Origin: Bacteroidota bacterium | GTDB taxonomy: Bacteria; Bacteroidota; Bacteroidia; NS11-12g; UBA9320 | Reading direction: 5' to 3' | Length of the DNA: 64,000 nucleotides | Assembly (NCBI GenBank): GCA_013359235.1 | Contig: JABWCE010000007.1 | Span: forward strand, 26,609 to 90,608 | Notes under the pieces: generated by a model | Databases searched by the model: none | The model's input: only the letters and a program-made list of their open reading frames with translations | Told to the model about the DNA's origin: nothing | Program-made: the position numbers and the translations under genes | Shown here: piece by piece, positions 1-22,948 of the stretch | Numbering within the stretch: the stretch's first letter is position 1 | How the letters are laid out: each line of letters starts with the position of its first letter

Positions 1-283
1 CAGTTTCCACATGGCAAAACAGCAGGAATAATAACATTTTTGCCTATCAAATTTTTATCTCCATCCACTACTGTTCCGCTTATTTCATGACCAAGAGTTA
101 AGGGAAGAGTTTTTTTGGTTTGTACTCCGTAATGCCAAAAGCTCAAATCTGTATGGCAAACACCGCATCCTGCAACTTTTACAAGCACTTCTCCATCTGC
201 CAATTTTGGAAAATCACAATTTGTTTTGACAAAGTCTTTGTCAGTTTCTATCATTTGCCACTGGTACATTTTATCTATGTGCA
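1..283 (-). CDS. Zn-dependent alcohol dehydrogenase (MDR family), N-terminal part; continues beyond window start
   Basis: Reverse-strand translation from the ATG at 283 reads MHIDKMYQWQ...CGVCHTDLSFWHYG...GHEISGTVVDGDK. It carries the catalytic-Zn GHExxG and CGxCHTD motifs. It sits 4 nt downstream of the previous minus-strand gene. Confidence 0.55.
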
Positions 284-287
284 TTAT

Positions 288-466
288 TTATTTTTTTATA
301 TCATAAAAACATCTGACAGGAGAATACAATTTCCCTTCTGCCATCAATTTTTTTAGAGTTTTATCTACTATTTTTTTATCAATACCTGTAAGTTCAGCTA
401 TTTCGCCTCCTTTAAGTGGTTTGGCAGATTTTGAAATCTGTTTTAATATTTGTTCTGATGCTTCCA
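288..466 (-). CDS. small hypothetical protein, possible winged-helix/HTH
   Basis: Start trimmed to MEASEQILKQ to avoid overlapping the thiolase. The sequence KGGEIAELTGIDKKIVDKTLKKLMAEGKL resembles an HTH recognition segment. It is embedded inside the operon. Confidence 0.3.
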
Positions 467-474
467 TATTTTTT

Positions 475-1737
475 TTATAAATTGATATTTTCAAATAATA
501 CAGCAGTACCCTGCCCACCTCCAATACAGGCAGAGGCTATTCCGTATCTTATATTTTTTCTTTTCATTTCTTTAGCCAGCGTTAATGATAATCTCAAGCC
601 ACTTGCAGCAAGTGGATGTCCTATGGCAATAGCTCCGCCGTTTACATTTAGTTTGTTTCTATCAAGTCCAAGTTCTATTTCGCAACCTATAACCTGCGAT
701 GAAAATGCTTCATTAATTTCAAATAATCCAATTTCGTCTATTTTTAAACCTGTGATTTCTAATAGATATTTTATAGCGGGCACGGGACCGAGTCCCATTA
801 CCTTTGGGTCTATGCCACTAGTAGCTGCAGCTACAACTTTTGCAATGGGATTAATATTTTTCGACTTTACAAAACTGCCAGAAGCTACAATGCCTGCCGC
901 GGCTCCATCTACTATTCCGCTGCAATTTCCGGCTGTTAAAACTCCCACTTCGGCAAAAACATTTGGTAATTTTGATAAAGATTCAAGATTAGTTTCACGT
1001 ATTTGTTCATCGCTGGTAAAATCTTTAACTCCACCCGATAATTTTACTTTTCTTGATTTTAAACCTTCAATTTCAAAAACTGTTGAATTTATTGGTGTTA
1101 TTTCTTCATTCAAAAAACCATTATTTTTAGCAGCAATAGCACGGTTAAACGATAGTAAAGCATATTCGTCACATTGATTACGAGTAATTTTATGTTTTAC
1201 AGCTACATTTTCGGCAGTAAACCCCATTGGATAGCCGGCGGCTGTATCGTCTAATGCTTCCCAAAGCATATCTTTAAATACAGGACGACCAAGCGGATAT
1301 CCCATTCTGTTTCCAAAACTTACTGTAGGAGCAAGTGACATACTTTCGGCTCCACAACACAGGGTTGCGTCTGCTTTGCCAAGTGTAATCTGTTCGGCAG
1401 AAGTTACAATGGTTTCAAAACCTGAGGCACAAATTCTCTGTACCATCAATGCAGGAATAGGCATTGGCAGCCCTGAAAATAGTGCTACATGACGTGGAAA
1501 AAAATATGCATCGCCTGATGATTGACCTATGTTTGCCATTACTGCCTGGTCAATATCAGAGGGTGAAATATTACTATTACTTATTGCAGCTTTGCTTGCA
1601 AAAATTCCAAGATCGGTTGGCGATACATTTGCAAGAGTGCCACAGTATTTGCCAAATGGCGTTCTTGCTCCATTTATAAAAAAAATGTCGTCAAATATTA
1701 TACCTATACCCTTATCTTTTGAGTGAAATGCTTTCAT
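475..1737 (-). CDS. acetyl-CoA C-acyltransferase (thiolase II family)
   Basis: 420 aa. N-terminal FINGARTPFGKY, CASG active-site region and C-terminal GGGQG motif. Full-length thiolase fold. Confidence 0.85.
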   Translation of the reverse strand: MKAFHSKDKGIGIIFDDIFFINGARTPFGKYCGTLANVSPTDLGIFASKAAISNSNISPSDIDQAVMANIGQSSGDAYFFPRHVALFSGLPMPIPALMVQRICASGFETIVTSAEQITLGKADATLCCGAESMSLAPTVSFGNRMGYPLGRPVFKDMLWEALDDTAAGYPMGFTAENVAVKHKITRNQCDEYALLSFNRAIAAKNNGFLNEEITPINSTVFEIEGLKSRKVKLSGGVKDFTSDEQIRETNLESLSKLPNVFAEVGVLTAGNCSGIVDGAAAGIVASGSFVKSKNINPIAKVVAAATSGIDPKVMGLGPVPAIKYLLEITGLKIDEIGLFEINEAFSSQVIGCEIELGLDRNKLNVNGGAIAIGHPLAASGLRLSLTLAKEMKRKNIRYGIASACIGGGQGTAVLFENINL

Positions 1738-1746
1738 TTATTTTTT

Positions 1747-3597
1747 TTAAACTAACTGTTTTGTTTTATTTTTTGATTCTTTAACAACTTCTGTATTTTT
1801 CCATGTTTGTTTTGCTATAATTGCAGCACCAAGCGAAACAACAAATTGAGGAAAATCAATTGTTTTAACTTCTCTATTAAATTTTTTAATTAAAATAGTA
1901 CTCATGTAAGGATGATGTGCAGCAACGCCTCCAATCATAAAAATAGGAATTCCGGGAACCAATCTCATTTTTGCAACTTTGTTTGCTATTGAAATGTAAA
2001 TACCTCTTGCAATATCTTGCATCGGCATTCCGTCAAATACCCAGTTCATAATTTCTGTTTTGGCAAAAACAGTACAAAAACTGTTTAATTCCTTGTCATA
2101 TTCTGAATGTGATGCAAGGTTGCTCATCTCTTCAATTTTTATTTCTGCTCTTTCTGAAATTTCTTCGAGAAAGGCACCGGTTCCGGCAGCACATTTATCA
2201 TTCATATAAAAGTTTGAAACTTGATTATCATTGTTACAATGAATTACTTTTATGTCTTCGCCACCTATATCTATAATATTTTTTTCTCCGTCATAAGAGT
2301 CTGAAACTCCTGCTGCTGCACAATTTATTTCGGTTTTTGTTATATCTGTTTCGGTAAAATGTTTTCTTCCGTATCCTGTAGCACAACTGTATTTTATATT
2401 GAATGATGAATAAATTGCCTTAATTACATTCTTCATTGCATTTCTGTCTTTATTCATGGTATGTACAATATATCTGAAAACAGGCTTTCCTTTCTCATTA
2501 ATAATTGTAAATTTGGTATATGACGAGCCCAGGTCCATTCCAAGAAAACAGTTTTGTTCTCTGTAGTATTGCAAAGGATGATTTTTTTCAACTAAACCTT
2601 TTAAAACGATTTTTTTGGTTAAAGAAGCATCAGCCCCCATGGGTCTATTCATTACGTTTTTATTAGTCATGGCTTTTATCATGTTTGTAAAAGCGAGGTT
2701 TAACGAAGTTTTTACATAATGCTTTTTGCCATATTCAACTATTTTACCATTGAAATAATCAATTTCGGTAGGACGGTTATTTATTAAATCTAAAGCTAAA
2801 GAAGGGAAATGCTCGCCTCCTTTTTTTAGGTATTGCATACACTTGCGGTAAAAATCGTCGGGAAAACGAATTTTTTCTTTTTCGGCAACTTCTATCCCTT
2901 CGTTTATTAATTGTTCAACGAGTTCAACAGTTTCGGGGTCAGACATTGCTTCGGCCATTGTAAGCCTGCCTACACCACAAAGTGGGCTAAGGGATGCGTT
3001 TAAAATTGTTTTTTCCCAAGTGCGTTTTAATATTTCAAACGAATTTATATTTTCTGTTTTAAAATCTACACTGTTTAATAAGTCTGCAAAAGTTTCGGAT
3101 TGTTTGCATCTGTTGTCATCAATAGAGCCTATATAGTTTGGTGGAGTAAAAAATGTAACTTTTACTGTATTAGGCGACATGAGGTTTCCGGCATAATTAA
3201 TAACCATTCTCAAGGTTTTTGATTCGCCAAAAACCGATGCTAAAATCTGTTCGGTATCTATTCCGTTTTGTGCAGCAATAACGGTCAATTTTTCGGAATT
3301 TAAAATTTCTGCTTCCTTTGCGGCGCCGAGTGTTTGGTATGATTTGAGGGCAAATATCAAATAATCAAGTCCCAAATTTCTCATTTCTGTAACAGAACTA
3401 TAAACATGTTCAAATCTGGTAATAGAAGCATATATATTTTCGAGTATTATTCCTTCGCTTATTACCTTTTTCAGTTTAAATTCGTCTTTATCACATAAAG
3501 CTACCTCGCAACCGGCCTCTTTTAACTTTACAGCCATTATCATACCCACAGGACCAATCCCCACTATTCCAACTTTTATTTTTTCTGATTTTTTCAT
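1747..3597 (-). CDS. fusion protein: ketopantoate-reductase-like (ApbA/PanE) NAD(P)-binding domain + BadF/BadG/BcrA/BcrD-type activase ATPase
   Basis: N-terminal ~310 aa begin KIKVGIVGIGPVGMIMAVKLKEAGCEV (Rossmann GxGxxG) with ApbA_C-like helical region. C-terminal ~300 aa carry MDLGSSYTKF...IGGEDIKVI...MNDKCAAGTGAFLE...IGGVAAH, the activase [4Fe-4S]-bridging Cys motif and ATPase motifs. Confidence 0.8.
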   Translation of the reverse strand: MKKSEKIKVGIVGIGPVGMIMAVKLKEAGCEVALCDKDEFKLKKVISEGIILENIYASITRFEHVYSSVTEMRNLGLDYLIFALKSYQTLGAAKEAEILNSEKLTVIAAQNGIDTEQILASVFGESKTLRMVINYAGNLMSPNTVKVTFFTPPNYIGSIDDNRCKQSETFADLLNSVDFKTENINSFEILKRTWEKTILNASLSPLCGVGRLTMAEAMSDPETVELVEQLINEGIEVAEKEKIRFPDDFYRKCMQYLKKGGEHFPSLALDLINNRPTEIDYFNGKIVEYGKKHYVKTSLNLAFTNMIKAMTNKNVMNRPMGADASLTKKIVLKGLVEKNHPLQYYREQNCFLGMDLGSSYTKFTIINEKGKPVFRYIVHTMNKDRNAMKNVIKAIYSSFNIKYSCATGYGRKHFTETDITKTEINCAAAGVSDSYDGEKNIIDIGGEDIKVIHCNNDNQVSNFYMNDKCAAGTGAFLEEISERAEIKIEEMSNLASHSEYDKELNSFCTVFAKTEIMNWVFDGMPMQDIARGIYISIANKVAKMRLVPGIPIFMIGGVAAHHPYMSTILIKKFNREVKTIDFPQFVVSLGAAIIAKQTWKNTEVVKESKNKTKQLV

Positions 3598-3604
3598 TTA
3601 ATTT

Positions 3605-4051
3605 TTATAAATTTTTTATAAAATAAACCTCATCATTTACTTCCTCGCCTCCGAATGATTTATTAAAAATTTCTTTATATTTTTCTATTTCAGATTCAAT
3701 ATTTTCATCAGTATCAATTATTGCAGCATTGACAATTTTATCATCATTGTTTTCAAAAAGCAAATTCACTTTTTTAATGCAACCGGTAAGGCATCTGCCG
3801 AGTTCGTCGAGATCACGAGGGCAAAAACAACCATCGTTTTCGTTTGGTGTTACAAGGTAATCGGGATTTTTGTAAAGGTTTTTGTCAGGAAAAATAAATG
3901 CAATATTTCGGCTATTACCATCTTTATTCAGCACAACGTATTTCACATAATGACAGGTATCTTTAATAAGTTTTTGAACTTCGTCATTAGCTAATTCTCT
4001 TCCGTCAGCAAGCCTGAAAATTTTGTTTTCTTTCAAATTATCAGATTCCAT
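3605..4051 (-). CDS. hypothetical small acidic protein with CxC-x10-C-x3-C motif
   Basis: 148-aa ORF tightly packed (7-nt gaps) between the HgdB-like gene and the activase fusion. Motif GCFCPRDLDELGRCLTGC. Confidence 0.5.
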   Translation of the reverse strand: MESDNLKENKIFRLADGRELANDEVQKLIKDTCHYVKYVVLNKDGNSRNIAFIFPDKNLYKNPDYLVTPNENDGCFCPRDLDELGRCLTGCIKKVNLLFENNDDKIVNAAIIDTDENIESEIEKYKEIFNKSFGGEEVNDEVYFIKNL

Positions 4052-4058
4052 GTTGTTA

Positions 4059-5282
4059 TTATTTATGTACTAAAACTTTATTACTTGTAATTTGCTCAAT
4101 AAAAGTTTCAATTTTGGTAATACTTTGCCCTTCTGAGTAAAATCTTAGGTCGCACAAATCGCCTTCAATTATCAAAGTGGGTATTCCTGTGCTTTCTGTT
4201 AATCTTTGTGGCAAGCCAAATCTGGAGTTTGAGTTGTTTGCACAGGTTTTTGCATCGTGAAATATTACTCCATCAATTTTAAAGGTTTTGCATAAATCAG
4301 TAAGTATATTTTGTTTTGCATTTTCGCTTCTGTTTATAAAAATTTCAGTATATGCTTTTGCTGATGACTCAAATGGATTTTCGGGGTCGAATGCATCAAA
4401 AACCCAACTGTTGCAATAAGTTGAAGCAACTACTGCTGCATTATTTTGTATAAACAAATCTGAAAGTGATCTTAATTTACCCCAGATTGGCATTCCGTCC
4501 CAGTACAAACGGCAACTTTCGCTTTCCAAAAATCCAATACCTTTTGCAACGTTTTCTTCCATTTCTTTTAGCAAAATTGTATAATAATCTTTTGCCTGTT
4601 GAGTTCCTCTTAAAACAACAATAGGACCCATGTGTATTGTAGCATCAAAAAAACTAATTGGCGAAGGTGTGTTAGTAGCAGTATAAAGTACTTTTTTCCA
4701 AAGGTCTGTAGCTTCTTTGCTCAATTTTAAAGTTTCTCTGAATTTATCAATATCAAATTTTTTTCCGCTTACTTCTTCGCAAACAGGTATCATTTTTCTG
4801 AATTGTGCAGCAACATCTTCTATTACTTCTTCTTTTATTTCGTCTAAGTGCCGTGGGGGGTAAATTCCAATAACCGGCACATTGAGTTCGCGACCAAAAT
4901 ATGTAAACCAATCTTGCACTTCTCTGCACTGGTTTGTGTTGTACACAATCAAATCAGGCTTTGGCGGACCTTCAAGACCGTAGTGTTCTTGCAGAGGTGT
5001 TTCTCCTTTAAGATATGAACCAATATCAGCAGTAAGATAAGAGCAAATATCGTTTGAATATCCAAACTTTGCTGATTCGGGAATAAGATCACCTGCTGTA
5101 CGTGTAGCACCGAGTAATGCTCCATGATTTTCGGGAAAATGTACTTCAAAGCCAAATGAACGCAAAAGTTCGGCTGGTCCTACACTTGTACACCATGCTA
5201 TTTTTTTATTTTTATTTTTCATACCGAGGAAATAATTTCCCATTATTTCCTTCATCACTTTTGTACTTTGTATTTTATACAT
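4059..5282 (-). CDS. 2-hydroxyacyl-CoA dehydratase / BcrB-BcrC family protein (HGD-D domain), lone subunit
   Basis: 407 aa. N-terminal KKIAWCTSVGPAELLRSFGFEVHFPENHGALLGA and the overall pattern are typical of the HgdB/YjiM/DCCP family. No paralogous partner gene is adjacent. Confidence 0.75.
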   Translation of the reverse strand: MYKIQSTKVMKEIMGNYFLGMKNKNKKIAWCTSVGPAELLRSFGFEVHFPENHGALLGATRTAGDLIPESAKFGYSNDICSYLTADIGSYLKGETPLQEHYGLEGPPKPDLIVYNTNQCREVQDWFTYFGRELNVPVIGIYPPRHLDEIKEEVIEDVAAQFRKMIPVCEEVSGKKFDIDKFRETLKLSKEATDLWKKVLYTATNTPSPISFFDATIHMGPIVVLRGTQQAKDYYTILLKEMEENVAKGIGFLESESCRLYWDGMPIWGKLRSLSDLFIQNNAAVVASTYCNSWVFDAFDPENPFESSAKAYTEIFINRSENAKQNILTDLCKTFKIDGVIFHDAKTCANNSNSRFGLPQRLTESTGIPTLIIEGDLCDLRFYSEGQSITKIETFIEQITSNKVLVHK

Positions 5283-5287
5283 TTCTT

Positions 5288-7414
5288 TTATAATTTAATT
5301 CTTGCATCTACAGCAACAGCCTTGTCGCTAAAAGCCATTACAGGATTTAAGTCCATTTCTTTTATCTGTGGAAAATCTGTAACGAGTTGAGAAATTCTTT
5401 GAATTATTTCTACTACACTTTTTTTATCAATTCCTAGCTGACCTCTCACTCCGTCTAATAATTTAGCTGATTTTATAGTTGAAAGCATTTCTTGAGCTTC
5501 GGTTTGAGTTACAGGACTGAGTTTAAAAACTACATCTTTCAGCACTTCTACATAAATTCCGCCCATTCCAAACATTATCAAATGCCCTGCATTACTTCCA
5601 GCCGAAACTCCAATTATAAGTTCTTTGCCACCCGGCATAAACTTCTGAACAAGGTATTTTAAATTAGTGCCACTAAAATTTTTATTAATGTTTTGTATTG
5701 CAGTTCTAAGTTCGTCTTTACATTTTATATTTATAACAACTCCGCCTTTATCGCTTTTGTGAACAATTTCGGGCGACTCGGCTTTTACTACAACAGGGTA
5801 TCCTATTTTTGATGATATTTGTTCTGCCTTTTCGTAACTGTCGGCTATTGCCCAGTTTGCAACAGCAATTTTGTACGCTTCTAATATTTTAAAAACATTT
5901 TCGGAAGAAAGAAACTTATCTTTTTCAGAATTTGAAAGAATATTAAAAACAGTACTTTTTTCAACATCATCAAAAACCATAGCCTCTCCAATTTCTCTGC
6001 TTTGTATTTTATGATATTTGTACAATGCCCCCAATGCTTTTGCAGCAGTAGTAGGAAAACTGTAGCATGGCACTCCACCATCTCTCATGATTTTTGCGGT
6101 ATGTTGATACCTTTCAAAACTCAAATTTGTCATAAAATTACAAATTATAGGTTTTTTCTTTTGTTTGCTTACTTCTACAATATTTCTAGCAACTTCGTCG
6201 GTATCAGTAAATGGTGCAGTTACAAAATTTATAAAAACGCTGTCAATATTTTCTTCGTCCATCAGTACATCCAAAGCACTTCTAAAATGAGCTCCACCAC
6301 CTGTTGCTACCACATCTATAGGGTTGCCTATTGTAGCTTCGGGTAATAGAGTGTTTTTTAAAATATTTACTGCTTTTTCGCTCAATGGAGGTATTTCAAG
6401 GCCTGCACTTACAAGTTCATCTGTAGCAATTACTGCAGGACCTCCGGTATTTGTAATTATTCCTACTCTATTACCTTTTGGAATTGGCTGAGTAGAAAAT
6501 GCCATAGCTGCCTGGCACATTTCTTCTTCATTTGTAAATGATAAAACACCGGTTTTTTCAAAAATCAATTCGGTTGAAATATCAACTCCGGCAAGCGAGC
6601 CAGTATGCGAAGCTGCAGCTTTTGCTCCGGCTTCGGTTCTGCCTGATTTCATAGCTAAAATTGGTTTTTTCTTAGCTACTATTTTAGCTGTTTCAAGAAA
6701 TTCTTTTGGATTGTGAAATCCTTCTGTATATAATATTATTGCTTTTGTACCTGTGTCTTGTCCATAATATTCTACCACATCTGATATAGAAATATCGCAG
6801 GCATTGCCATTTGAGGCATACATTCTCATCCCTATATCCAAATCGAAAAGACTCTGCATAATAAATGCTCCCACTCCACCGCTAAGGGCTACAATAGAAA
6901 TGGTTCCGGGCTTTGGAAATGTGAACGTAAAATCACAATAAGCATTGTAGTCAGGGTCGCAATTTATTATTCCCTGGCAATTGGGTCCGAAAATACGAAC
7001 TCCGTATTTTTTTGCATTTTCAAGAAAAGCATTTTGCAATGCTACTCCTTCATCGCCCATTTCGCTGAAACCTGCCGAATTTATTATTACCGATTTTATT
7101 CCTTTTTTTCCGCAATCTTCAATTATTTGTGGTACAAATTTGCTTGGTATTATTACATGTGCAAGGTCAATTTCATCGGGTACATCAAAAATTGATGGAT
7201 ATGCTTTGATACCTCTAATCTCCGGTTCTTTGGGATTTATAGGATAAATTTTGCCAGTATAATTGAAATGAATTAGATTTTTGGTGATGACATTACCAAT
7301 TGATAACTCTTTTGAAGAAGCACCAATGATAGCTATTGATTTGGGCTTAAAAAGAGTATCCAACTCGTGTTTAATAGACATTTGCTTACTTGCAATTGAA
7401 TTTTGAACTCCCAT
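5288..7414 (-). CDS. acyl-CoA synthetase (NDP/ADP-forming), fused alpha-beta type
   Basis: 708 aa. N-terminal CoA-binding Rossmann (SIAIIGASSKELSIGNV), succinyl-CoA-synthetase-like middle region, C-terminal ATP-grasp_5 (GYPVVVKAESPEIVHKSDKGGV). Confidence 0.8.
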   Translation of the reverse strand: MGVQNSIASKQMSIKHELDTLFKPKSIAIIGASSKELSIGNVITKNLIHFNYTGKIYPINPKEPEIRGIKAYPSIFDVPDEIDLAHVIIPSKFVPQIIEDCGKKGIKSVIINSAGFSEMGDEGVALQNAFLENAKKYGVRIFGPNCQGIINCDPDYNAYCDFTFTFPKPGTISIVALSGGVGAFIMQSLFDLDIGMRMYASNGNACDISISDVVEYYGQDTGTKAIILYTEGFHNPKEFLETAKIVAKKKPILAMKSGRTEAGAKAAASHTGSLAGVDISTELIFEKTGVLSFTNEEEMCQAAMAFSTQPIPKGNRVGIITNTGGPAVIATDELVSAGLEIPPLSEKAVNILKNTLLPEATIGNPIDVVATGGGAHFRSALDVLMDEENIDSVFINFVTAPFTDTDEVARNIVEVSKQKKKPIICNFMTNLSFERYQHTAKIMRDGGVPCYSFPTTAAKALGALYKYHKIQSREIGEAMVFDDVEKSTVFNILSNSEKDKFLSSENVFKILEAYKIAVANWAIADSYEKAEQISSKIGYPVVVKAESPEIVHKSDKGGVVINIKCKDELRTAIQNINKNFSGTNLKYLVQKFMPGGKELIIGVSAGSNAGHLIMFGMGGIYVEVLKDVVFKLSPVTQTEAQEMLSTIKSAKLLDGVRGQLGIDKKSVVEIIQRISQLVTDFPQIKEMDLNPVMAFSDKAVAVDARIKL

Positions 7415-7433: not shown

Positions 7434-8270
7434 TCAGGCTACAACTGCCTGTTTTTCTTTAAGTTTTATATGTCTGAAACCGCCCCATAATGCAGCACCA
7501 ATTGCACCTGCATAAATTGCATCAGGATGAGAATGTATTTGATATGATTTTCCCATCTCTTCAAGTTGCTCTTCAAGAGCTTGTATCATACCTTTATTTA
7601 AAGCCATTCCACCTGTAACAACAATGGGCGATTCGGCTTTTAGCGAACTTAAAAGTTTTAGTATTCTGTTGGCAATTGAGATATGAATTCCTTTTATAAT
7701 ATCGGGAGTTGAAATTCCTCTCGAAACCATATTTATAACATCAGTTTCGGCAAGAACAGCACATATTCCTGAAGAAATTTCGGGATTTTGTGATTGCATT
7801 GATACATCGCCAACTTCTTCAATTGAAAGTCCTAAATATCTTGAAATATTTTCAACAAACTGCCCCGATCCCGAAGCACATTGTCCAGTCATTTTGTAAT
7901 CGTAAACTCTTGCATCTTCAGATATTTTTATTGCTCTTACATAAAGTGCTCCCATATCTACCACGGTAATTGCATTGGGGTATAGAAAATGGGCGCCTTT
8001 TGCATGAGTAGTCATTCCATAAAAATGTCCTCTTTTTCTTTTTACCAAATCACCCTCGCCTGTTGAAGCAAAGTAGGCAATATCTTCGTATTTGAGGTTG
8101 TGTTTTGATAGCATTTTCTGAGTCATTTCTTCTGCAACCTGCGATGGATCGCGTTTTCTTATCTTTTCGGTGTGTTTGTCTATAAGTTTGGGATTATCAG
8201 AATAATCAACAAGTACTAATTTTATGAAATTAGACCCAACATCAATCCCCATTGTATAAAAATTTTCCAT
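7434..8270 (-). CDS. BadF/BadG/BcrA/BcrD-family ATPase, short form (BcrD/activase-like)
   Basis: 278 aa. MGIDVGSNFIKLVLVD, MTGQCASGSGQFVE Cys motif and GGMALN. Lacks the insertion seen in the upstream paralog. Confidence 0.8.
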   Translation of the reverse strand: MENFYTMGIDVGSNFIKLVLVDYSDNPKLIDKHTEKIRKRDPSQVAEEMTQKMLSKHNLKYEDIAYFASTGEGDLVKRKRGHFYGMTTHAKGAHFLYPNAITVVDMGALYVRAIKISEDARVYDYKMTGQCASGSGQFVENISRYLGLSIEEVGDVSMQSQNPEISSGICAVLAETDVINMVSRGISTPDIIKGIHISIANRILKLLSSLKAESPIVVTGGMALNKGMIQALEEQLEEMGKSYQIHSHPDAIYAGAIGAALWGGFRHIKLKEKQAVVA

Positions 8271-8287
8271 ATCTATTATTTATTAAT

Positions 8288-9712
8288 CTATTGAATTGCT
8301 TCTTGTGTTTTTTTATTTGAAGGAAGGTCGGCACTAATGTTTCTTCTGGCAAACATTGCTCCTCCCAAAGCGCCCATAAATATTGAATCAGTATGAATAT
8401 TTATTGTTATATCATTGCCGTAATTGTCTCTTACAAGCTGGGTAAGATATTTGATAACAGCAGGATTTCTGGCAACTCCTCCGGTAAATGTAAACTCGTT
8501 GAAAACACCACCCGAACGTGCTATAAGCGACATTGCACGCATAATAATTGCTTTGTGCAAGCCACCGAGTATATCTTCACGTTTTTCGCCAAGGTTTGTA
8601 AGTTCTCTAAGTTCTGCACCTGCAAAAACTGTACATGTTGAGCAAATATTTACTTCCTTTTGAGCTTCCATTGCCATTGGTCCAAGTTCGTTTAACGAAA
8701 TACTCATCTCGTCGGCAATATACCCAAGGTATCTGCCACATCCAGCAGCACAGCGGTCGTTCATTTGAAATGATGTTACAAGTCCATATTTATCAACCTG
8801 TATTGCTTTTGTATCTTGCCCGCCAATGTCGAGTACTGTTCTTGTGTCAGGAAAAACAGCATGTGCCCCAAATGCATGGCACAATATTTCGGAACGAATA
8901 CATTCTTGAGGGAAGGGCAATAATGCTCTGCCATAGCCTGTACCGGTCATATTTTCGATATGAAATTCGAGATCGGCAATGTCGTCAATATGAGAACGAA
9001 GTGTTTCTGAAACCTGGTCAAAATTTCCTTTCAGCAAATTCATTTCTGCATCAAAGTTTATACTTTCGTTTTCGGCTACTGTATCGGGCAAGTTTTTGTA
9101 TTTTTCTTTAAGCTCAACCATAGCTTTGTGTACCAGTTCTTTGAAATCGAATTTAATTCTTTCGTTTTCGGCCGGAGAAATACTTTTGTCCCAAACGGTC
9201 ATTAGTGGCTCGAAAAGTGCCATTTCTAATTTGTTTACTTCTTCGTTGTATTTTTCTGATACAATATCTCTGAAAAACTGATTTTTTTCACCCAGATTGT
9301 TGTACAAATAATCGTGCTTTATTTTTGGTTTAAAGGCTTTGCGAATGTTTCTTAAATGACCTAGAATTTCATTTTTTTGTTCATCGTTTTTAAAAAAATT
9401 GTTGCAAGTTTTTACTAGTTCATCGCCCAATTTATCTAGTTTTATTTTAAATTGTTCGTATTGAAATACACTTTCGAGGTCTGAAATGTATTTTTTGTAT
9501 TCGGGTTTCGAAATTATTTCTTTTTCAAGGTTTTTTTTAAGAATTGAAAATCTAGCATTGTATGTAGCTTCATCTCTTGCTATATCGGCTGCTACAGAAT
9601 AATTTGCACGGGTGTTTGTAATACCTCTACCTATTATTTCGTCTTGCTCGTTGATAATTACAGCTTTTGAAGTTGTGGAGCCGAGGTCAACTCCAAGATA
9701 ATATTTGCTCAT
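8288..9712 (-). CDS. BadF/BadG/BcrA/BcrD-family ATPase, long form with ~190-aa helical insertion (BcrA/BadF-like)
   Basis: 474 aa. YYLGVDLGSTTSKAVII, then a long charged insertion, then IGGQDTKAIQV, MNDRCAAGCGRYLG and TGGVARN. The size and insertion position match the large ATPase subunit of class-I benzoyl-CoA reductases. Confidence 0.75.
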   Translation of the reverse strand: MSKYYLGVDLGSTTSKAVIINEQDEIIGRGITNTRANYSVAADIARDEATYNARFSILKKNLEKEIISKPEYKKYISDLESVFQYEQFKIKLDKLGDELVKTCNNFFKNDEQKNEILGHLRNIRKAFKPKIKHDYLYNNLGEKNQFFRDIVSEKYNEEVNKLEMALFEPLMTVWDKSISPAENERIKFDFKELVHKAMVELKEKYKNLPDTVAENESINFDAEMNLLKGNFDQVSETLRSHIDDIADLEFHIENMTGTGYGRALLPFPQECIRSEILCHAFGAHAVFPDTRTVLDIGGQDTKAIQVDKYGLVTSFQMNDRCAAGCGRYLGYIADEMSISLNELGPMAMEAQKEVNICSTCTVFAGAELRELTNLGEKREDILGGLHKAIIMRAMSLIARSGGVFNEFTFTGGVARNPAVIKYLTQLVRDNYGNDITINIHTDSIFMGALGGAMFARRNISADLPSNKKTQEAIQ

Positions 9713-9725
9713 TTTATTATTTTTT

Positions 9726-11027
9726 TTAAACTGTTACTGATTCTTGTGATAAAATTATTTTACGTTGCTCAAGCATTTGAAAATACGATTCAAGTCTGTT
9801 TTTAATATTTGCATACGAAAAATACCTTGGGTCAACAAGGTCGCTTTCAATAAAACCAACCGGAACGCCAGTGCGTTGTTCTATTTCACGCATTATCATA
9901 AGTTGCCCTGCAGAAAATGAATTGCATGATTTAATTGAGTTAATCAAAAATCCGTCAGCTTGATATTCTTTTACATATTTTTCTATGAGATCAACCCTTT
10001 GTGGAAGGTTTAGATTGGTATAACAACCCATACAATATGTAGCAAGGCTTTCGAGTGGCTCTTCGGGGTTTTGGCGATATCCTAAATCATAAACACCGCC
10101 TACTTTTGTATAAGTAGATGCTACAATTACAGCACCCATATCATAAAATATTTTCCAAAATTCGCGGAAGTTTGTCCAGTTGGGAGGTCCTTCTACTACA
10201 AGACGGAAGCGTTCTTTTTGCATTTCGCCTTCTGGGGTTACCGGAAGTAATTTTTTTTCAGCTCTGTCTTTTATTTCGTGATAAAGTTCTTTGTAATATT
10301 CAAGACATTCGTCTGACCCTCTAAAGGCGGTATTTATAGGACCCATGTAATAAACTCCGGCAAAATACGCATCAATTGGCGATGGTTTGATTTTGGCAAG
10401 TTGCAATACTTTTACCCAGTAATCTTCTGATTGAACCGAGTTGCTCAATAGTTTGCTTAATCTGGCAGAATCAAATTTTTTACCTGATACTTTTTCAAAT
10501 TTTGGCAAAACTTCTTCTTTTAGTTGTTTCACCATATAATCAATTTGTTCTTTTGTTATTTTGCCATCTTCCTGATATGGTGTGTGCAACATTGCTATTT
10601 CGGCATTTGGATAAAGTCTGTTGAGATTTTCAAACCATTTTAGAAATGTAAAACATCCTGTATAGCTCAAAAGTAGCAAATCTGGCTCGGGAAGTTTTTC
10701 TCCTGTAGGACCTATATTTCCGTTTAACATCATTCCTATATCGCATTTCACATAAGTACATACATCTTCTGAATGACCCATTTTTTCGGCATCTTTTATA
10801 TACCCGCCCGATTTTTTTCTCATACCCGATTGTAAAGCGTTAATCTCGGGATATACCGGAAGCATATCGAATGACAAAATGAGTTCTATCAAGTTGCCGG
10901 GGACAAACGTATAACAAACTTTTTTGCCTGTTTCTTTTGCTTTGCTAAGGTCATTAAATTGTTTAGCGAGCATTTCTTTTTGAATAATCATGCTCTTTTC
11001 TTTTACTGCATCTTTTGGATTTGCCAT
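9726..11027 (-). CDS. HgdA/HgdB-BcrB/BcrC family subunit (BcrB-like, 433 aa)
   Basis: HGD-D-type sequence (KKVCYTFVPGNLIELILSFDMLPVYPE, conserved Cys). Paralogous to the next gene. Confidence 0.7.
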   Translation of the reverse strand: MANPKDAVKEKSMIIQKEMLAKQFNDLSKAKETGKKVCYTFVPGNLIELILSFDMLPVYPEINALQSGMRKKSGGYIKDAEKMGHSEDVCTYVKCDIGMMLNGNIGPTGEKLPEPDLLLLSYTGCFTFLKWFENLNRLYPNAEIAMLHTPYQEDGKITKEQIDYMVKQLKEEVLPKFEKVSGKKFDSARLSKLLSNSVQSEDYWVKVLQLAKIKPSPIDAYFAGVYYMGPINTAFRGSDECLEYYKELYHEIKDRAEKKLLPVTPEGEMQKERFRLVVEGPPNWTNFREFWKIFYDMGAVIVASTYTKVGGVYDLGYRQNPEEPLESLATYCMGCYTNLNLPQRVDLIEKYVKEYQADGFLINSIKSCNSFSAGQLMIMREIEQRTGVPVGFIESDLVDPRYFSYANIKNRLESYFQMLEQRKIILSQESVTV

Positions 11028-11076
11028 ATTCTTTAATCTTTTAAAATTTCTACTGCTTTTTCAAATTTATGTTTTT

Positions 11077-12240
11077 TTATGCCCAAAGTTTTATCGAGTC
11101 TGAAAATGTTCCGGCTTGTTCTTTTATTACTTTAAACTGCCCTGTATTTTCGTGATATTGGAAGTTTATATGCGGAACACCTGCCGCATCACATTCTTTT
11201 TGCATTTCGGGGCGGTCTAACAGAGCTGGGTCGCAAAAACTTGCAGCCGAAAATATAACACCATCAGCTTCTCTTCTTTTTACAAGTTCTACAAGTCTTT
11301 TACCTTTTGGATTTCCTACATCGTAATAGCACGAAGCAAAAGTACTTTGGTTGAGATATGCTTTTGTGATAGCTTCGAGGGGGTCGTTGGTATCTTCTTC
11401 AATATCTCCTTGTATCCATCGTGAGCCAAGCATAAAATCGTCGTCAACAATGTAGCATCCAGCCATTTCTATTGATTTTATTAATCCCACTGGCGGTTGT
11501 TCGCAAAACGAGCCTGAAACCACAACTCTAATATTATCCATTGCCTCGCCTCTTTCATTTCTTATTACATTTAATATTTTCTGAAGCATTTCATTGTGTT
11601 CTTCTACTGTAATGCAAATACCGGCTCTAAGAATATGATATGTTTCTACTGCCGAAAGCCTCCAAGGATATTTTTGCCTTATGTCGTAAATCTCTTCTAT
11701 TAACCTTCTGTTTATATTGTAAAGTTTTATTGCTTTATTAAGACCGTCAACACTTGCTTTTACACCATTTACATTGTAAATATCATCTATTACTTTTTCC
11801 ATTTCATGTTTGTAAAATGTACCTCCTATAAATGGGTCAAAGTTTTGTGCATAATCAAAATATCTTTGAAATTTACCTTTTTTTGACAACTTAAACATAC
11901 CTGATAGATTTCTTACGCAATCGCAAATTGCAGGAAATAAAAACCCATCAAAACCATTTAGATTATTATCCAAAGCCATTTCAATTATTCCACGAGGCAA
12001 ATGACAAATGTAAGATTGATAATATGCATCGCCTTTAATAATTTGTTTGCGGTCGCCTGTACCCATAATTCCCACAGCTATACCATTGGCTGCATGAATT
12101 ATTTCTCGAGGAACATATATTGGCAGATATCCAACAATTACTCTTTTTTCATCTTTGCTTTTCCATTGTTTTGCATGAGTAAATTCGAGGTCGAATGCTG
12201 TTTTTTCGCACCACGATAATATTTCTTCTAAACTATTCAT
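11077..12240 (-). CDS. HgdA/HgdB-BcrB/BcrC family subunit (BcrC-like, 387 aa)
   Basis: HGD-D-type sequence (VIVGYLPIYVPREIIHAANGIAVGIMG...ICDCVRNL). First gene of the operon. Confidence 0.7.
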   Translation of the reverse strand: MNSLEEILSWCEKTAFDLEFTHAKQWKSKDEKRVIVGYLPIYVPREIIHAANGIAVGIMGTGDRKQIIKGDAYYQSYICHLPRGIIEMALDNNLNGFDGFLFPAICDCVRNLSGMFKLSKKGKFQRYFDYAQNFDPFIGGTFYKHEMEKVIDDIYNVNGVKASVDGLNKAIKLYNINRRLIEEIYDIRQKYPWRLSAVETYHILRAGICITVEEHNEMLQKILNVIRNERGEAMDNIRVVVSGSFCEQPPVGLIKSIEMAGCYIVDDDFMLGSRWIQGDIEEDTNDPLEAITKAYLNQSTFASCYYDVGNPKGKRLVELVKRREADGVIFSAASFCDPALLDRPEMQKECDAAGVPHINFQYHENTGQFKVIKEQAGTFSDSIKLWA

Positions 12241-12281: not shown

Positions 12282-12289
12282 CAAATTTA
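12282..12289 (-). promoter_or_regulatory. candidate Bacteroidota -7 element (TAAATTTG on minus strand) upstream of the bcrC-like gene
   Basis: Matches TAnnTTTG about 45 nt upstream of the ATG at 12240, in the 154-bp intergenic region after rsfS. Confidence 0.25.
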
Positions 12290-16444: not shown

Positions 16445-18280
16445 TTACAATTTCTCTGGCAGTGTGTATTTTCTTCCTTTATTTGCTTTTTTCAAATAAA
16501 TAAGTAAAGGTTCAAAATACTCAAGCATTGGTTTGGCACTCATTTCAGAACCTAAATGGTTTTTAAGATGTTGTCTCCAATCAACACTGGCACCTGGATA
16601 CATAAGATCTTTAAGAAACTTTCCTGTTTCTTTGCTTCCCCAGTAGTTGGTATTATGAGGGTCTTGTTTTAAAATTTGCTTAGAAATATGGTCATGAAAC
16701 TGGAATAAAAGTACATTGCTCATTGAGTAATCGTAATACTGTGCTGCATCATCGTTTATATGTGTTTTTGTGGCAGCATCGCAATATTCTTCACCTCTAT
16801 CTGTTGGAGGAATAATTCCCTGATATTTTTTAACATAATTCCACCATGTTTTGTTAAACTCATTTATAGTAATATTTTTTGAGTACAAATCATGTTCAAA
16901 TGCAGTCATAACTCCTGCACCCCAAGGAATATGAACAATAAAATCAAGCGATTCTTTAAGTAAGTTAATTGTATCGTTAGAGGTTTCGTCTTTCCCAATT
17001 AATCCAAAATTTTGTAAAAAAGGTTTTTGCAAAGCTGCAAGTCCAATCAAACTACCCATTGCCTCGTGATAAGCTCTATTTGCTCCACTTCTCAAAATCA
17101 AAGGGACATCATTGTTTGAATAGCTAATGTAATAATAAATATGCCCCAACTCATGTAAAACCGTACCCCACCACTCGGTATTAGGCTCAACACTCATAAG
17201 GCTTCTCACGTCTAAATTATTATCAATATGCCACGCACTTGCATGGTTGTTTTTTTTATACTTAACTTCGGGAGGTAAAGGATACAAACTTGATTTTTCG
17301 TAAAAAGATTTAGGTAGTTCAGAAAAACCGAGGCTTTTGTAAAATTCTTCACCTTGCTTTACTATCCATTCGGCATTTTTTGTTTTAAGTTTTTCGTCAA
17401 GATTAATTCCTGATGAATTCACCATGGCTGTCCAATCTTGTCCCCATCTGTTTGGTAGCCAATGAGCCGGAATGTAATCGGGTACATCTTGCTTGTATCT
17501 TGCAGCAAGTTCGTAACGTGCCCAAGTATGTAATTCTCGGTAAAGTGGCCATACATCATTAATCATCTGACTACAACTCTGCATAATTTCGTCTGATGTC
17601 ATGCCGTATTCAGAAGCCTGATAATCAAAAAAATCTTTATAGCCGAGAGCCTGAACTGATTTATTTCTTAAATTTCTTAAATTCTCAAGTCCGTTTTTCA
17701 ATGTTTTTCCAACTTCTTTGCTTGTACTCCATACTTTTAGTCTTTCTTCAAGTTTATTTGATTTTCTTAAAATATCGTCAATATTGTTTGTAGTTACCTC
17801 TTTGTTGTCAATCAAATATTTATATCCATATAATAACCCTATTTGATTTGTTTCTGCTTTAATTTTTTGCTTTACTATATCGCTTACAGTTTCAGGATTG
17901 GCACCTGCCATAAAAAGAATTGTTTCAAGTTGTTTTACTTGTAAGGGTGATAATTTATCCTTTGTTTTCAGGTATTTTCGGGCTTTTTCAATATTAATTT
18001 TGCTACCTGTAAATTGTGCAAATTTTTCGGCTGCATCGCTTGCTTGTTTTGATGTAATAGAATCTCCTTCAATAATCATTGTGTTTAGTTTCCATTGAGC
18101 TTCATTGTTTACAGTAAGCAATTTTTGAAATTCAATATTGTACGAATCAAGATATTTTTGAACTTCGTTTTGAAGTTCCTTATTTTCATTGGTTTTATTA
18201 CAATTCATATTTGTCATCAAAATTATTGCTATCATAAAAAACAAAATTTTTAAATTTATTTTTTTTAAATTCTCTTTCAT
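16445..18280 (-). CDS. M2-family peptidyl-dipeptidase (angiotensin-converting-enzyme-like), secreted
   Basis: 611 aa with signal peptide. Zinc site VLHELGHIYYY (ACE HEMGH-type) plus a downstream Glu ligand. Size matches a single ACE domain. Confidence 0.75.
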   Translation of the reverse strand: MKENLKKINLKILFFMIAIILMTNMNCNKTNENKELQNEVQKYLDSYNIEFQKLLTVNNEAQWKLNTMIIEGDSITSKQASDAAEKFAQFTGSKINIEKARKYLKTKDKLSPLQVKQLETILFMAGANPETVSDIVKQKIKAETNQIGLLYGYKYLIDNKEVTTNNIDDILRKSNKLEERLKVWSTSKEVGKTLKNGLENLRNLRNKSVQALGYKDFFDYQASEYGMTSDEIMQSCSQMINDVWPLYRELHTWARYELAARYKQDVPDYIPAHWLPNRWGQDWTAMVNSSGINLDEKLKTKNAEWIVKQGEEFYKSLGFSELPKSFYEKSSLYPLPPEVKYKKNNHASAWHIDNNLDVRSLMSVEPNTEWWGTVLHELGHIYYYISYSNNDVPLILRSGANRAYHEAMGSLIGLAALQKPFLQNFGLIGKDETSNDTINLLKESLDFIVHIPWGAGVMTAFEHDLYSKNITINEFNKTWWNYVKKYQGIIPPTDRGEEYCDAATKTHINDDAAQYYDYSMSNVLLFQFHDHISKQILKQDPHNTNYWGSKETGKFLKDLMYPGASVDWRQHLKNHLGSEMSAKPMLEYFEPLLIYLKKANKGRKYTLPEKL

Positions 18281-18324
18281 AATGCCTGCAAATTAGCAAA
18301 AAAATAAAAATGGTAAAAAAAAAT

Positions 18325-18360
18325 CTCCGTTGGTAACAACCAACGGAGATTTATAATAAA
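18325..18360 (-). terminator. Rho-independent terminator after the susC-susD pair
   Basis: 11-bp perfect stem ATCTCCGTTGG / CCAACGGAGAT with 6-nt loop, followed on the minus strand by a run of 9 T. Confidence 0.6.
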
Positions 18361-18374
18361 TGAAAACAACAAAA

Positions 18375-19787
18375 CTAATTTGAATCCCACCAAACAGGAA
18401 CTGACATATCAGAAACTATTGTGGCGTTAGGATTGTACTGTCTTTCTTCTAAAATATTTGGCAGCCTGCGAGGTATTTCGGTAGTTGCACCTGTAGCTTT
18501 GGTTAATGTAGGAAAACCGGTACGTCTCCAATCATTATACACTTCTATTTGAGTAAACAATGCAATATACTTTTGATTCATTATTTTCTCTAAAGTAATA
18601 GTTGAAGCATCTTCAGAAGCATTTGCTGTAATGTAAGCTGCATCCGGTGCACTTCCGGTTACTTTAGTAATGTGTTCAATTACTGCATCATTATATGCTT
18701 TAGCAGCACCGGCTTTGTCTGTCCCGAGTTTTGCTTCGGCTTCCAAAAACTTGGCTTCAACATAAGTAATAAGTGGCAATGATGCATCGGGTGAAGCATA
18801 ATAATTTCCAATTGTAGATACTTTGCTTGCATAAGCTATCATTTCAGCTTCGCCAGCAGGGGTTCCCAAATAAGCGGTAGTATCACTCAAAGCACAATAC
18901 GAAGGCAAACGAGGGTCATTTATTGCATTCATCATATTTACAAGTTTTGCACCCATTCTTATATAACCTTCTCTTTCAACTTTACAGAATGCATACCATT
19001 GGTTGTATTCGTTTGCATTTGTACCGAAAATCATGTTGCAATCATCATCACTACCAGCCAACCCGGCAGTATATGCTGCAGTAAGGGCATCAAGTGTTTT
19101 TTGTGCTGCAGTAGAACTTTTTTTGCTGATTCTCATTTCATATCTGGCTTTAAGCATCCATGCTGTTCTTATCCACTTATCTTTGTCGCCTCCGAAAATA
19201 TAATCGTCAGCACCTGGCAATAAGATGTTTTTGCTATCGTCTTGTCCCAAATCTGCAATTGCTTCTGTAAGTAATGTTTGAATTGCTTTTATTACATCTT
19301 CTTGTTTGTCATATACAGGCTTTCTTGATGCCTCGGTATATTCTTCACCTTTTAAAGCTTGACTGTACGGTACATCACCCCAAAGATCGGTAGCAGCACC
19401 AATCATTAAAGCTCTCAATACTTTTGCAATTCCGTTATAGCGTGGGTTGGCAGCACCGGCAGTTTCCATTAATTTTTTTGTATTAATTAAACCACTTGAA
19501 TACAAATTTTGCCATTCATTGTCATAATCACCTTCTACCATACCATATTTTTCATAAATAAAAGCTTGGTCGGTATTTCCAGAGCTTTGTTGAGTAAAGA
19601 TAGATGCAGTTCTTGACAAGTTTCCGCCATAAGCTGCAAAAACAGCTAATTCGCAATTTGATAATAATAATGCAGCAGTAACTGAGCCTGGAGAGTTTGG
19701 AGAAATTTTATCTCCGTCTGTAAATTTTTTACATCCTTGTGAAATTACAAGTAATGATATTGCTATTGTTATAAATAATTTTTTCAT
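18375..19787 (-). CDS. susD: SusD/RagB-family nutrient-binding outer-membrane lipoprotein
   Basis: 470 aa, lipoprotein signal (…VISQGC), immediately downstream of the SusC gene. TPR-like SusD composition. Confidence 0.8.
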   Translation of the reverse strand: MKKLFITIAISLLVISQGCKKFTDGDKISPNSPGSVTAALLLSNCELAVFAAYGGNLSRTASIFTQQSSGNTDQAFIYEKYGMVEGDYDNEWQNLYSSGLINTKKLMETAGAANPRYNGIAKVLRALMIGAATDLWGDVPYSQALKGEEYTEASRKPVYDKQEDVIKAIQTLLTEAIADLGQDDSKNILLPGADDYIFGGDKDKWIRTAWMLKARYEMRISKKSSTAAQKTLDALTAAYTAGLAGSDDDCNMIFGTNANEYNQWYAFCKVEREGYIRMGAKLVNMMNAINDPRLPSYCALSDTTAYLGTPAGEAEMIAYASKVSTIGNYYASPDASLPLITYVEAKFLEAEAKLGTDKAGAAKAYNDAVIEHITKVTGSAPDAAYITANASEDASTITLEKIMNQKYIALFTQIEVYNDWRRTGFPTLTKATGATTEIPRRLPNILEERQYNPNATIVSDMSVPVWWDSN

Positions 19788-19807
19788 GATTATATCCTCC
19801 TATCTAA

Positions 19808-22800: not shown

Positions 22801-22948
22801 TACCTTTTACTACTACTGAAACACCCGGAATAGCTTCTTTTTCGGAAGCTGATGTTACTTTACCGGTAATTGTCCGGTTTTGTGCTACTGATGGAATTAC
22901 CCATCCTACGAGCAATAATCCTAAAAATAATATGTAATACTTTTTCAT
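19808..22948 (-). CDS. susC: SusC/RagA-family TonB-dependent outer-membrane transporter
   Basis: 1046 aa. Signal peptide, carboxypeptidase-regulatory-like N-domain, TonB box/plug, and C-terminal aromatic residue ending ...KANF. Confidence 0.9.
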   Translation of the reverse strand: MKKYYILFLGLLLVGWVIPSVAQNRTITGKVTSASEKEAIPGVSVVVKGTTIGTSTDINGNYTVSVPSSRSVLIFSYISMKTVEIAVGSNSTIDVSLEDDGKGLDEVVVTAVALEKSAKSLGYSTQKVDGKEVAESGEQNVIQGLSGKAAGVFVQGTSGTPGASSKILLRGNVTFEGNNQPLIVVDGVPIDNSTSNTVAGDYPFNMNLQGVNNSNRGIDINPDDIESINILKGPAAAALYGAQAASGAIIITTKKARVKGKGRGFGVVYSTSIELQKVNKLPELQTKYGQGNGGGALLKSKLTGKLDSVVEVGKFSASTPNSWGPAIASDKAYDNLEEFFKRGEVFSNSITLNAFNEKSSLRLSFANLKQDGIIPNSEYKRNTITVNADHKISDKFSFGTSFSYINSGGTLVQNGSNLAGVMLGLTRTPTDYRLDDPTSTGPNGWTNVDGSQRLWYPLYDNPHWSVRNNPYTTDVNRMYGNINFKASPFSFMDLNYRLGTDVYTDKRVSIFSIGSNQPDNAPGGEINQNIQTYRYVYQDVIATFKRSLTDDIVGSLAIGSNVQYEKSEDQFLRGRDLTIPNYYNLSNASNLYANGSYAVLKKTGVFGDLNLSFKDYLFLNVTGRQDRWSSFSKTIFYPSTSLAFLFTDFVKQKWFTFGKVRLAYAQAGKGPSPYRTQNYYAKPTFTDGFTSGLGFPYLSQNGFGISNTLNDPNIKPETTSSTEIGLDLRFFDSKLRFDFTWYNQKSKNIILSIPVAPSSGFRALYTNSGEMENKGIEIIASGTPYKDKNFSWDISLNFNKNNNKVLKLGNGVEELSPEAAFTSNSAYAIVGEPFGVIYGSKWLRNDQGQLLIKTNGLPAVDPQKGNLGNPYPDWMMGIRNSFNFKGVRLTGLFDIRQGGEIWNGTYARLNRMGRTDESADRNRYYIIEGVKQSDGTTNDIPVSASSYWQTYQGDGGSYASENAMQDASWVRLRELGISYNIKIKQIEKYVKSIDLGIVGKNVWLKTEYKGVDPETSLTGAGSNIGGFDYFNNPGLKSWIFSLKANF

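Follow-up and report, generated by a model that had tools for sequence, protein, structure and literature searches.

A Bacteroidota-specific operon insert beside the genes of a probable Bcr/Bad-type class I benzoyl-CoA reductase

We analysed a 64,000-nt stretch of the Bacteroidota contig JABWCE010000007.1 (hereafter the window, meaning the whole stretch), and in particular a four-gene block on its minus strand whose products resemble a class I benzoyl-CoA reductase (BCR). The open reading frames (ORFs) of 387, 433, 474 and 278 amino acids (aa) described at 7434-12240 by the initial annotation were recovered at exactly the same positions, and Pfam bore out its description of two HgdA/B-family paralogs followed by two BcrAD/BadFG ATPases of unequal size:

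11077..12240, minus strand: bcrC-like gamma subunit, 387 aa; HGD-D family (Pfam E-value 2e-67)
9726..11027, minus strand: bcrB-like catalytic beta subunit, 433 aa; HGD-D family (Pfam E-value 1e-64)
8288..9712, minus strand: bcrA-like large ATPase, 474 aa; BcrAD_BadFG (Pfam E-value 1e-66)
7434..8270, minus strand: bcrD-like small ATPase, 278 aa; BcrAD_BadFG (Pfam E-value 4e-60)

All four ORFs were intact and co-directional, with gaps of 13-49 bp between them, and the GC content of the block (0.35-0.36) was equal to that of its flanks. Two plus-strand ORFs (8393-8641 and 8635-9111) that overlap the bcrA-like gene were dismissed as spurious, and Rfam and tRNA scans of the window returned no matches. 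The composition and C-B-A-D order, which had been likened to bcrCBAD of Thauera aromatica, recurred with near-equal subunit sizes in the proteobacterial loci that we used as references (L085-L087). The assignment of the host to Bacteroidota also stood: the window encodes SusC and SusD as a pair, as well as a protein with the CHU_C type IX secretion signal, and an identical protein is deposited as 'MAG: Bacteroidetes bacterium' (MAG, metagenome-assembled genome); nothing, however, pointed to Bacteroidales specifically.

Family membership was judged with NCBIfam equivalog models and their curated cut-offs. The BcrB-like protein scored 680.8 bits against TIGR02260 (cut-off 486.55), the BcrC-like protein 456.7 bits against TIGR02263 (cut-off 421.15) and the BcrD-like protein 320.7 bits against TIGR02261 (cut-off 312.85), all three passing; the BcrA-like protein had TIGR02259 as its top match by 267 bits, with an alignment spanning positions 3-432 of the 432 in the model. 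Models for HadB/HadC, for the bzd type and for double-cubane proteins gave 65-202 bits with the four proteins, and the HadB/HadC and bzd scores (86-202 bits) were far under their cut-offs: 202 bits for HadB (NF052455, cut-off 750), 154 bits for HadC (NF052456, cut-off 700), and 86, 106 and 141 bits for the Bzd models TIGR03190, TIGR03191 and TIGR03192 (cut-offs 454, 449 and 380, respectively). The comparison of BCR with dehydratase profiles, proposed as a check in the initial annotation, therefore favoured BCR.

Among 1.8 billion cluster representatives (50% identity clusters) searched exhaustively for BcrB homologs, just two were close and full-length, sharing 61% and 59% identity; the next shared 45%. 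These nearest two scored 815 and 630 bits against TIGR02260 and all others at most 374 bits; the jump from 630 to 374 indicates that the cut-off sits in a real gap, with the protein from the window (681 bits) on the BcrB side. The clade of the 61% representative carried names from Gammaproteobacteria, Steroidobacteraceae, Xanthobacteraceae and Rhodoplanes MAGs. In a neighbour-joining tree (no bootstrap, limited sampling), the Bacteroidota BcrB proteins formed one clade that was sister to the proteobacterial BcrB proteins rather than nested among them. A tblastn search of plasmids with the BcrB-like protein found only distant HGD-D proteins (23-26% identity), and no solved structure of the Bcr type turned up in a PDB sequence search.

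We then located the predicted cluster ligands and active-site residues through HMMER alignments of the 433-aa protein to BzdO, MbdO and HadB, taking residue roles (cluster Cys, proton-donor Glu, thioester-binding Tyr) from the BzdNO crystal structure (PMC11971306) and, for the ATPase cysteines, also from alignments to HgdC/HadI. In the BcrB-like protein, Cys90, Cys125 and Cys368 aligned with BzdO Cys95, Cys128 and Cys380, and Tyr92 with the thioester-binding BzdO Tyr97; the proposed proton donor, Glu61 in the motif YPEIN, was placed through MbdO and HadB alignments of the YPE motif. The predicted [4Fe-4S] ligands of the BcrC-like protein are Cys79, Cys106 and Cys336. This protein keeps three of the six double-cubane cysteines of BzdN, as do MbdN and HadC, and the three-Cys pattern fits the BCR/3-methylbenzoyl-CoA reductase types; on this pattern we rejected the Bzd type. 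For the bridging cluster, the predicted ligands are Cys321 and Cys360 in the BcrA-like protein, and Cys131 and Cys170 in the BcrD-like protein, the latter two being its sole cysteines. The cysteine ligands that we had been prompted to look for thus occur in all four subunits, the two ATPases as well as the two HGD-D proteins, and the catalytic Glu is kept.

The large ATPase carries an insertion:

8966..9550, minus strand: charged insertion of about 195 aa in the large ATPase, residues 55-249; an alignment gap against MbdQ and HadI

Against the 269-aa MbdQ, the 474-aa protein aligned over residues 3-54 and again over residues 250-464, which places the inserted segment after the first phosphate loop (DLGST, residue 9) and agrees with the insertion of about 190 aa originally described at this site; the small ATPase, as also described, is without it. 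K, R, D and E made up 36% of the insertion and 21% of the remainder of the protein, so its charged character stood. Its helical character was supported only weakly: a single-sequence AlphaFold model had helices over residues 48-255, but its mean predicted local distance difference test (pLDDT) score of 38 was too poor for use. On its own, the insertion matched TIGR02259 positions 30-212 (E-value 7e-18), and it aligned motif by motif with proteobacterial BcrA (GRGITNxRxNY, EQF, FFRDI and DKSI), which answers positively the question of its homology. Its placement had been compared to BcrA, BadF and BzdQ; the BcrA part of that comparison held, whereas BzdQ is a short subunit, its model having 293 positions and matching only residues 231-455 of the 474-aa ATPase. 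By these alignments, the insertion is a Bcr/Bad-type feature. Together, these results argue strongly that the four genes encode a Bcr/Bad (Thauera)-type class I benzoyl-CoA reductase, the reading that we consider very probable.

The block belongs to a longer operon. The thiolase gene at the left end of the window was identical on a 57-kb public contig (L081), which after reverse complementation agreed with the window without a mismatch for 11,737 nt and on which the operon extends past the left edge of the window (L081 11271-17189):

12282..12289, minus strand: TAAATTTG, possible -7 promoter box, some 42 nt before the start codon of bcrC, read from the sequence
475..1737, minus strand: thiolase, 420 aa; Thiolase_N and Thiolase_C; TIGR01930, 390.5 bits; conserved in related loci
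288..467, minus strand (L081 11271-11450): winged-helix (HTH_11-like) protein, 59 aa; weak Pfam match
1..284, minus strand, running off the window: Had, full protein 352 aa; TIGR03201, 461.3 bits (cut-off 338.65)
L081, beyond the window: Oah, 360 aa; TIGR03200, 586.4 bits (cut-off 464.45)
L081, beyond the window: ferredoxin of the 2x[4Fe-4S] type, 77 aa; weak OGOR delta-like match
L081, beyond the window: 2-oxoacid:ferredoxin oxidoreductase (OFOR) alpha, beta and gamma, 360, 258 and 183 aa; VorB-like alpha subfamily, 529 bits
L081, beyond the window: Dch-like crotonase, 257 aa; TIGR03189 as best match, 207.3 bits (cut-off 292.5)

The genes run in the order bcrCBAD, CoA ligase, HadB-like, Cys-rich protein, ketopantoate reductase (KPR)-activase, thiolase, helix-turn-helix protein, had, oah, ferredoxin, OFOR and dch-like, about 17 in all, and since the gaps throughout the window part are 3-49 bp, it reads as one operon. 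In the window, bcrC is preceded by rsfS. The TAAATTTG element matches TAnnTTTG, the -7 consensus of Bacteroides promoters, and is a possible Bacteroidota-type -7 box of bcrC. As judged from family assignments, Had, Oah, the Dch-like protein, ferredoxin and OFOR together with bcrCBAD are the Thauera pathway gene set, and the thiolase is a candidate 3-oxopimelyl-CoA or benzoylacetyl-CoA thiolase.

The segment from bcrD to had holds a lineage-specific module. In the proteobacterial bcr loci examined we found none of the ligase, HadB-like, Cys-rich, KPR-activase and thiolase genes, all of which follow bcrD here:

5288..7414, minus strand: nucleoside diphosphate (NDP)/ADP-forming acyl-CoA synthetase, 708 aa; CoA_binding, Succ_CoA_lig and ATP-grasp_5; no NCBIfam equivalog reached
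4059..5282, minus strand: third HGD-D paralog, HadB-like alpha type, 407 aa; Pfam HGD-D
3605..4051, minus strand: Cys-rich protein, 148 aa; no Pfam or NCBIfam match; motif CHY...GCFCPR...CLxGC
1747..3597, minus strand: KPR-activase fusion, 616 aa; Pfam ApbA, ApbA_C and BcrAD_BadFG

The 708-aa synthetase would be the CoA ligase of the pathway. This ADP-forming enzyme occurred in 17 loci (the window and 16 others), and a 581-aa AMP-forming ligase occupied the same operon slot in 37 of 80 related loci (their sampling is given below); one locus had both types (L020 17818-21287). Activation by an ADP-forming enzyme would halve the ATP spent on this step. The 407-aa protein has Cys80, Cys119, Cys347 and the Glu of an FPEN motif, with the ligand columns conserved. 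Its best NCBIfam match was HadB, at 221 bits (cut-off 750), and its best PDB match was also HadB (178 bits, compared with 132 bits for MbdO); it was present in 45 of the 51 related loci with enough downstream DNA, and no gene for a beta (HadC-like) partner was found in the operon. The 148-aa ORF, which sits between the HadB-like gene and the fusion gene, encodes as a separate protein what the 581-aa AMP-forming ligases (e.g. L017 5892-7637) carry as their C-terminal domain, with five Cys conserved between the two. Occurrence of the same cysteines in free and fused forms suggests a metal site or redox role apart from adenylation.

The fusion protein combines an NAD(P) reductase of the KPR family (ApbA/PanE; residues 1 to about 315) with a BcrAD/BadFG activase (about 350-595) that carries both cluster cysteines, Cys469 and Cys508, and it scored 167.9 bits against TIGR00241 and 160.8 bits against TIGR00745. 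Databases label it only '2-dehydropantoate 2-reductase'. All of the best 120 homologs listed were fused and from Bacteroidota, and the two contexts examined were again bcr operons; among these, the search for a fusion in another phylum or apart from bcr genes gave no example. In three related loci, the reductase and activase halves are separate adjacent genes. Of the 51 loci whose sequence reached far enough downstream, 40-45 contained the module.

From its predicted families, the parts list of the module (1747-5282 and the ligase) resembles that of a Had/Fld-type 2-hydroxyacyl-CoA dehydratase pathway. In another locus, from a MAG labelled Maribacter, a gene for a class I/II aminotransferase separates the KPR-activase fusion from the thiolase (L088 10382-11398). 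This enzyme hints at an amino-acid-derived 2-oxoacid as substrate for the module, and, taken with the dehydratase-like parts list, makes a feeder route from 2-oxoacids plausible: 2-oxoacid to 2-hydroxyacid, to 2-hydroxyacyl-CoA, to enoyl-CoA and, by thiolysis, to benzoyl-CoA. Phenylalanine or tyrosine, by way of aryl-lactates, would be one such source. We tentatively suggest, as a possibility that we do not regard as the expected outcome, that the Bacteroidota version goes beyond a transplanted Thauera pathway and that the module is a second ATP-dependent radical enzyme, in which a lone HadB-like subunit works with its own activase fused to a 2-oxoacid reductase, in company with the Cys-rich ligase-domain protein and, in this lineage, the ADP-forming synthetase, and may feed benzoyl-CoA to the pathway. 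The KPR domain could equally be a 3-hydroxypimelyl-CoA dehydrogenase, with the thiolase cleaving 3-oxopimelyl-CoA. If the feeder route is real, activation would cost ATP to ADP rather than ATP to AMP, and fermentative or low-energy anaerobes could then afford the ATP-dependent reduction of the ring. A search for new members of the BCR/HAD radical enzyme family could start from this well-defined module.

We investigated the distribution of the block by scanning one genome per GTDB species, which gave 237 relatives, of which 80 loci with 78-89% BcrB identity were kept. The block that the initial annotation proposed to look for in related genomes was thereby found in 80 related MAG loci. Most were labelled Bacteroidota, Bacteroidia, Flavobacteriales, Chitinophagales, Saprospiraceae or Sphingobacteriales, with a few other labels (among them Ignavibacteria, Bifidobacteriaceae and Competibacteraceae), and their sources were lakes, groundwater, peat and wastewater plants. 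The bcrC gene adjoined bcrB in 72 of the 75 loci with room for it, bcrA followed in 76 of 77, and bcrD in 56 of 64. Upstream of bcrC, many loci carried a divergent set encoding a 4-hydroxybenzoyl-CoA-reductase-like Mo enzyme, XdhC, a MocA-like protein, a short-chain dehydrogenase/reductase and a hemerythrin-like protein:

L001 2773-8654, L013 1489-8599, L050 3281-8632 and others, divergent from bcrC: Mo-enzyme set
L074 6968-7681, L045 16941-20516 and L009 1-1862: CRP/FNR-type regulator or pyruvate:ferredoxin oxidoreductase loci

The alpha and gamma subunits of the Mo enzyme are fused (932 aa; 805 bits against TIGR03194, under the cut-off of 995) and its beta subunit has a Cys-rich insert; in the window, the set was absent upstream of bcrC. 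Near some loci lay a putative regulator of the CRP/FNR type whose N-terminus bears a Cys cluster, or a putative pyruvate:ferredoxin oxidoreductase of 1191 aa. By their predicted families, the two would fit anaerobic growth and regulation by anoxia.

The results above show sequence family, ligands, homology of the insertion, operon content and conservation. Enzyme activity, subunit assembly and electron path, which we infer from the sequences, would be as follows. BcrA and BcrD would form a heterodimeric ATPase with one bridging [4Fe-4S] cluster, held by two Cys from each subunit and reduced by ferredoxin. ATP hydrolysis would then push electrons to very low potential, from the [4Fe-4S] cluster of BcrC to an aqua-[4Fe-4S] cluster of BcrB, where benzoyl-CoA would be reduced to cyclohexa-1,5-diene-1-carbonyl-CoA with Glu61 as proton donor. 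The operon would supply substrate activation, ring reduction, hydration, oxidation and hydrolysis to 3-hydroxypimelyl-CoA, and its OFOR and ferredoxin would regenerate reduced ferredoxin; by gene content, the steps from activation through 3-hydroxypimelyl-CoA and the regeneration of ferredoxin would be covered. We likewise infer from sequence what the ligase, the HadB-like protein and OFOR act on.

Several observations weigh against a Bcr/Bad-type benzoyl-CoA reductase. The BcrA-like protein scored 439.8 bits against TIGR02259, under the cut-off of 578, and the Dch-like hydratase was likewise under its curated TIGR03189 cut-off. The position of BzdO His131 is Phe in the BcrB-like protein, as in MbdO, and the Bzd-type active site is therefore not transferable residue for residue. 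Neither a glutaryl-CoA dehydrogenase nor a clear 3-hydroxypimelyl-CoA dehydrogenase was seen in the operon. All 80 related loci come from uncultured organisms (79 MAGs and one enrichment-derived assembly), with no cultured host among them. Finally, class I BCRs are described as typical of facultative anaerobes with a good energy yield (PMC11971306).

Among other explanations, the one that survives best, although we consider it unlikely, is a BCR-type reductase for a substituted or other aryl-CoA (hydroxy-, methyl- or amino-benzoyl-CoA) or for another low-potential CoA ester. The Bacteroidota proteins form a separate sister lineage, with 61% (BcrB) and 45% (BcrA) identity to proteobacterial enzymes, BcrA scored under its equivalog cut-off, the operon holds extra enzymes without an assigned role, and shifts in specificity are known among class I relatives, as in the 3-methylbenzoyl-CoA reductase (PDB 9g87). 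However, Had and Oah pass cut-offs for enzymes acting on the unsubstituted dienoyl-CoA product, BcrB, BcrC and BcrD pass theirs, and the frequent 4-hydroxybenzoyl-CoA-reductase-like neighbour would yield plain benzoyl-CoA. A recently transferred or decaying gene set, having no function in its host, is far less likely still. In some related loci (L001, L007, L013 and L050) bcrD is displaced and unrelated genes lie between the subunit genes, as decay would allow; yet all ORFs in the window are intact with their ligands conserved, BcrB keeps its 78-89% identity in 80 MAGs that differ in composition, the clade of the Bacteroidota proteins is separate from the proteobacterial ones and not nested in them, and the GC content of the block does not depart from its flanks. 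A 2-hydroxyacyl-CoA dehydratase (Hgd/Had/Fld/Lcd) with an unusual heterodimeric activator shares the superfamily with its HGD-D and BcrAD_BadFG domains, and HadB and HadC were the second-best PDB matches, but we rejected it as barely credible for these four genes on the HadB/HadC scores set beside the passing BcrB and BcrC scores, on the two distinct ATPases, one with the BcrA insertion, and on an operon context of dearomatisation.

To our knowledge, work on anaerobic ring reduction by ATP-dependent class I enzymes has been confined almost wholly to Proteobacteria that are facultative anaerobes. The initial annotation had stated that ATP-driven reductases that dearomatise CoA esters, or reduce others of low potential, are not known as a characterised trait of Bacteroidota. 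This held in that no paper describing a class I BCR in Bacteroidota was found in the searched literature; however, in many Bacteroidota MAGs the protein already bears the name 'benzoyl-CoA reductase subunit B' from the NCBI (PGAP) and JGI pipelines. The nearest report is of bcrABCD in Krumholzibacteriota MAGs, from the same superphylum (PMC10936416). What is new here is the Bacteroidota-specific operon insert; the bcr genes themselves are widespread and already machine-annotated. The presence of the block in at least 80 species-level genomes, nearly all labelled Bacteroidota, suggests that members of a phylum known chiefly as polymer degraders may also mineralise aromatics of the benzoate/4-hydroxybenzoate type anoxically, which bears on the turnover of lignin- and humic-derived aromatic carbon in anoxic freshwater and engineered systems. 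For enzymology, the Bacteroidota clade offers a distinct sister lineage of the Bcr type.

Two further observations concern the rest of the window. At 16445-22948 on the minus strand, a gene for an M2 (angiotensin-converting-enzyme-like) peptidase lies directly downstream of the SusC/SusD-like pair, and from these predicted products the locus may serve peptide rather than polysaccharide utilisation. At 48860-51928 on the plus strand, a 1022-aa protein has two methylmalonyl-CoA mutase stretches and a C-terminal B12-binding domain, and from this domain layout appears to be a single-chain fusion of both mutase subunits.

Compared with known systems, the operon is closest to the type of Thauera aromatica BcrCBAD and Rhodopseudomonas palustris BadDEFG, with which it shares the subunit set, the sizes, the C-B-A-D order and a three-Cys BcrC, as well as the had, oah, dch, fdx and OFOR neighbours. 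In the reference loci L085-L087 the genes stand in the canonical kor / had-oah-dch-bcrCBAD-fdx order, and the subunits measure 389-391 (C), 437-438 (B), 445-451 (A) and 281-283 aa (D). Against one gammaproteobacterial cluster, BcrC, BcrB, BcrA and BcrD from the window showed 48, 61, 45 and 52% identity, the BcrA value covering residues 3-457, and Had, Oah and the Dch-like protein 48, 60 and 36%. BcrA differs from its proteobacterial counterparts by about 25 extra residues in the insertion, by this lower identity and by its score under the cut-off. Furthermore, the proteobacterial loci have a two-subunit KorAB, whereas the window operon has a four-subunit OFOR (VorB-like alpha, beta, gamma and a small ferredoxin), and had, oah and dch lie upstream of bcr in the former and downstream in the latter.

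The best solved-structure relative of all four subunits was the 3-methylbenzoyl-CoA reductase MbdONQP (PDB 9g87 and 9gai), with scores of 194, 192 and 213 bits against MbdO, MbdN and MbdQ. It shares with the window proteins the three-Cys gamma subunit and the Phe at the BzdO His131 position; MbdQ (269 aa) and MbdP (273 aa), however, are without the insertion of about 195 aa, and the likeness to Mbd is well under that to the Bcr models. BzdNOPQ of Aromatoleum (PDB 8s02) catalyses the same reaction and belongs to the same superfamily, and its catalytic-cluster Cys triad, Glu and Tyr are conserved in BcrB from the window, whereas in BzdN six Cys hold an [8Fe-9S] double cubane, and the BcrC-like protein has half of them. 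The module, in turn, looks by its predicted parts like HadBC/HadI and the Fld/Hgd systems, having an alpha-type HGD-D protein with a Cys triad, an activase, a putative 2-oxoacid reductase (KPR family) and a CoA-activating enzyme. It differs from them in having no HadC-like gene, in the fusion of its activase to the reductase, in a ligase taking the place of the CoA-transferase, and in a HadB score (221 bits) far under the cut-off of 750.

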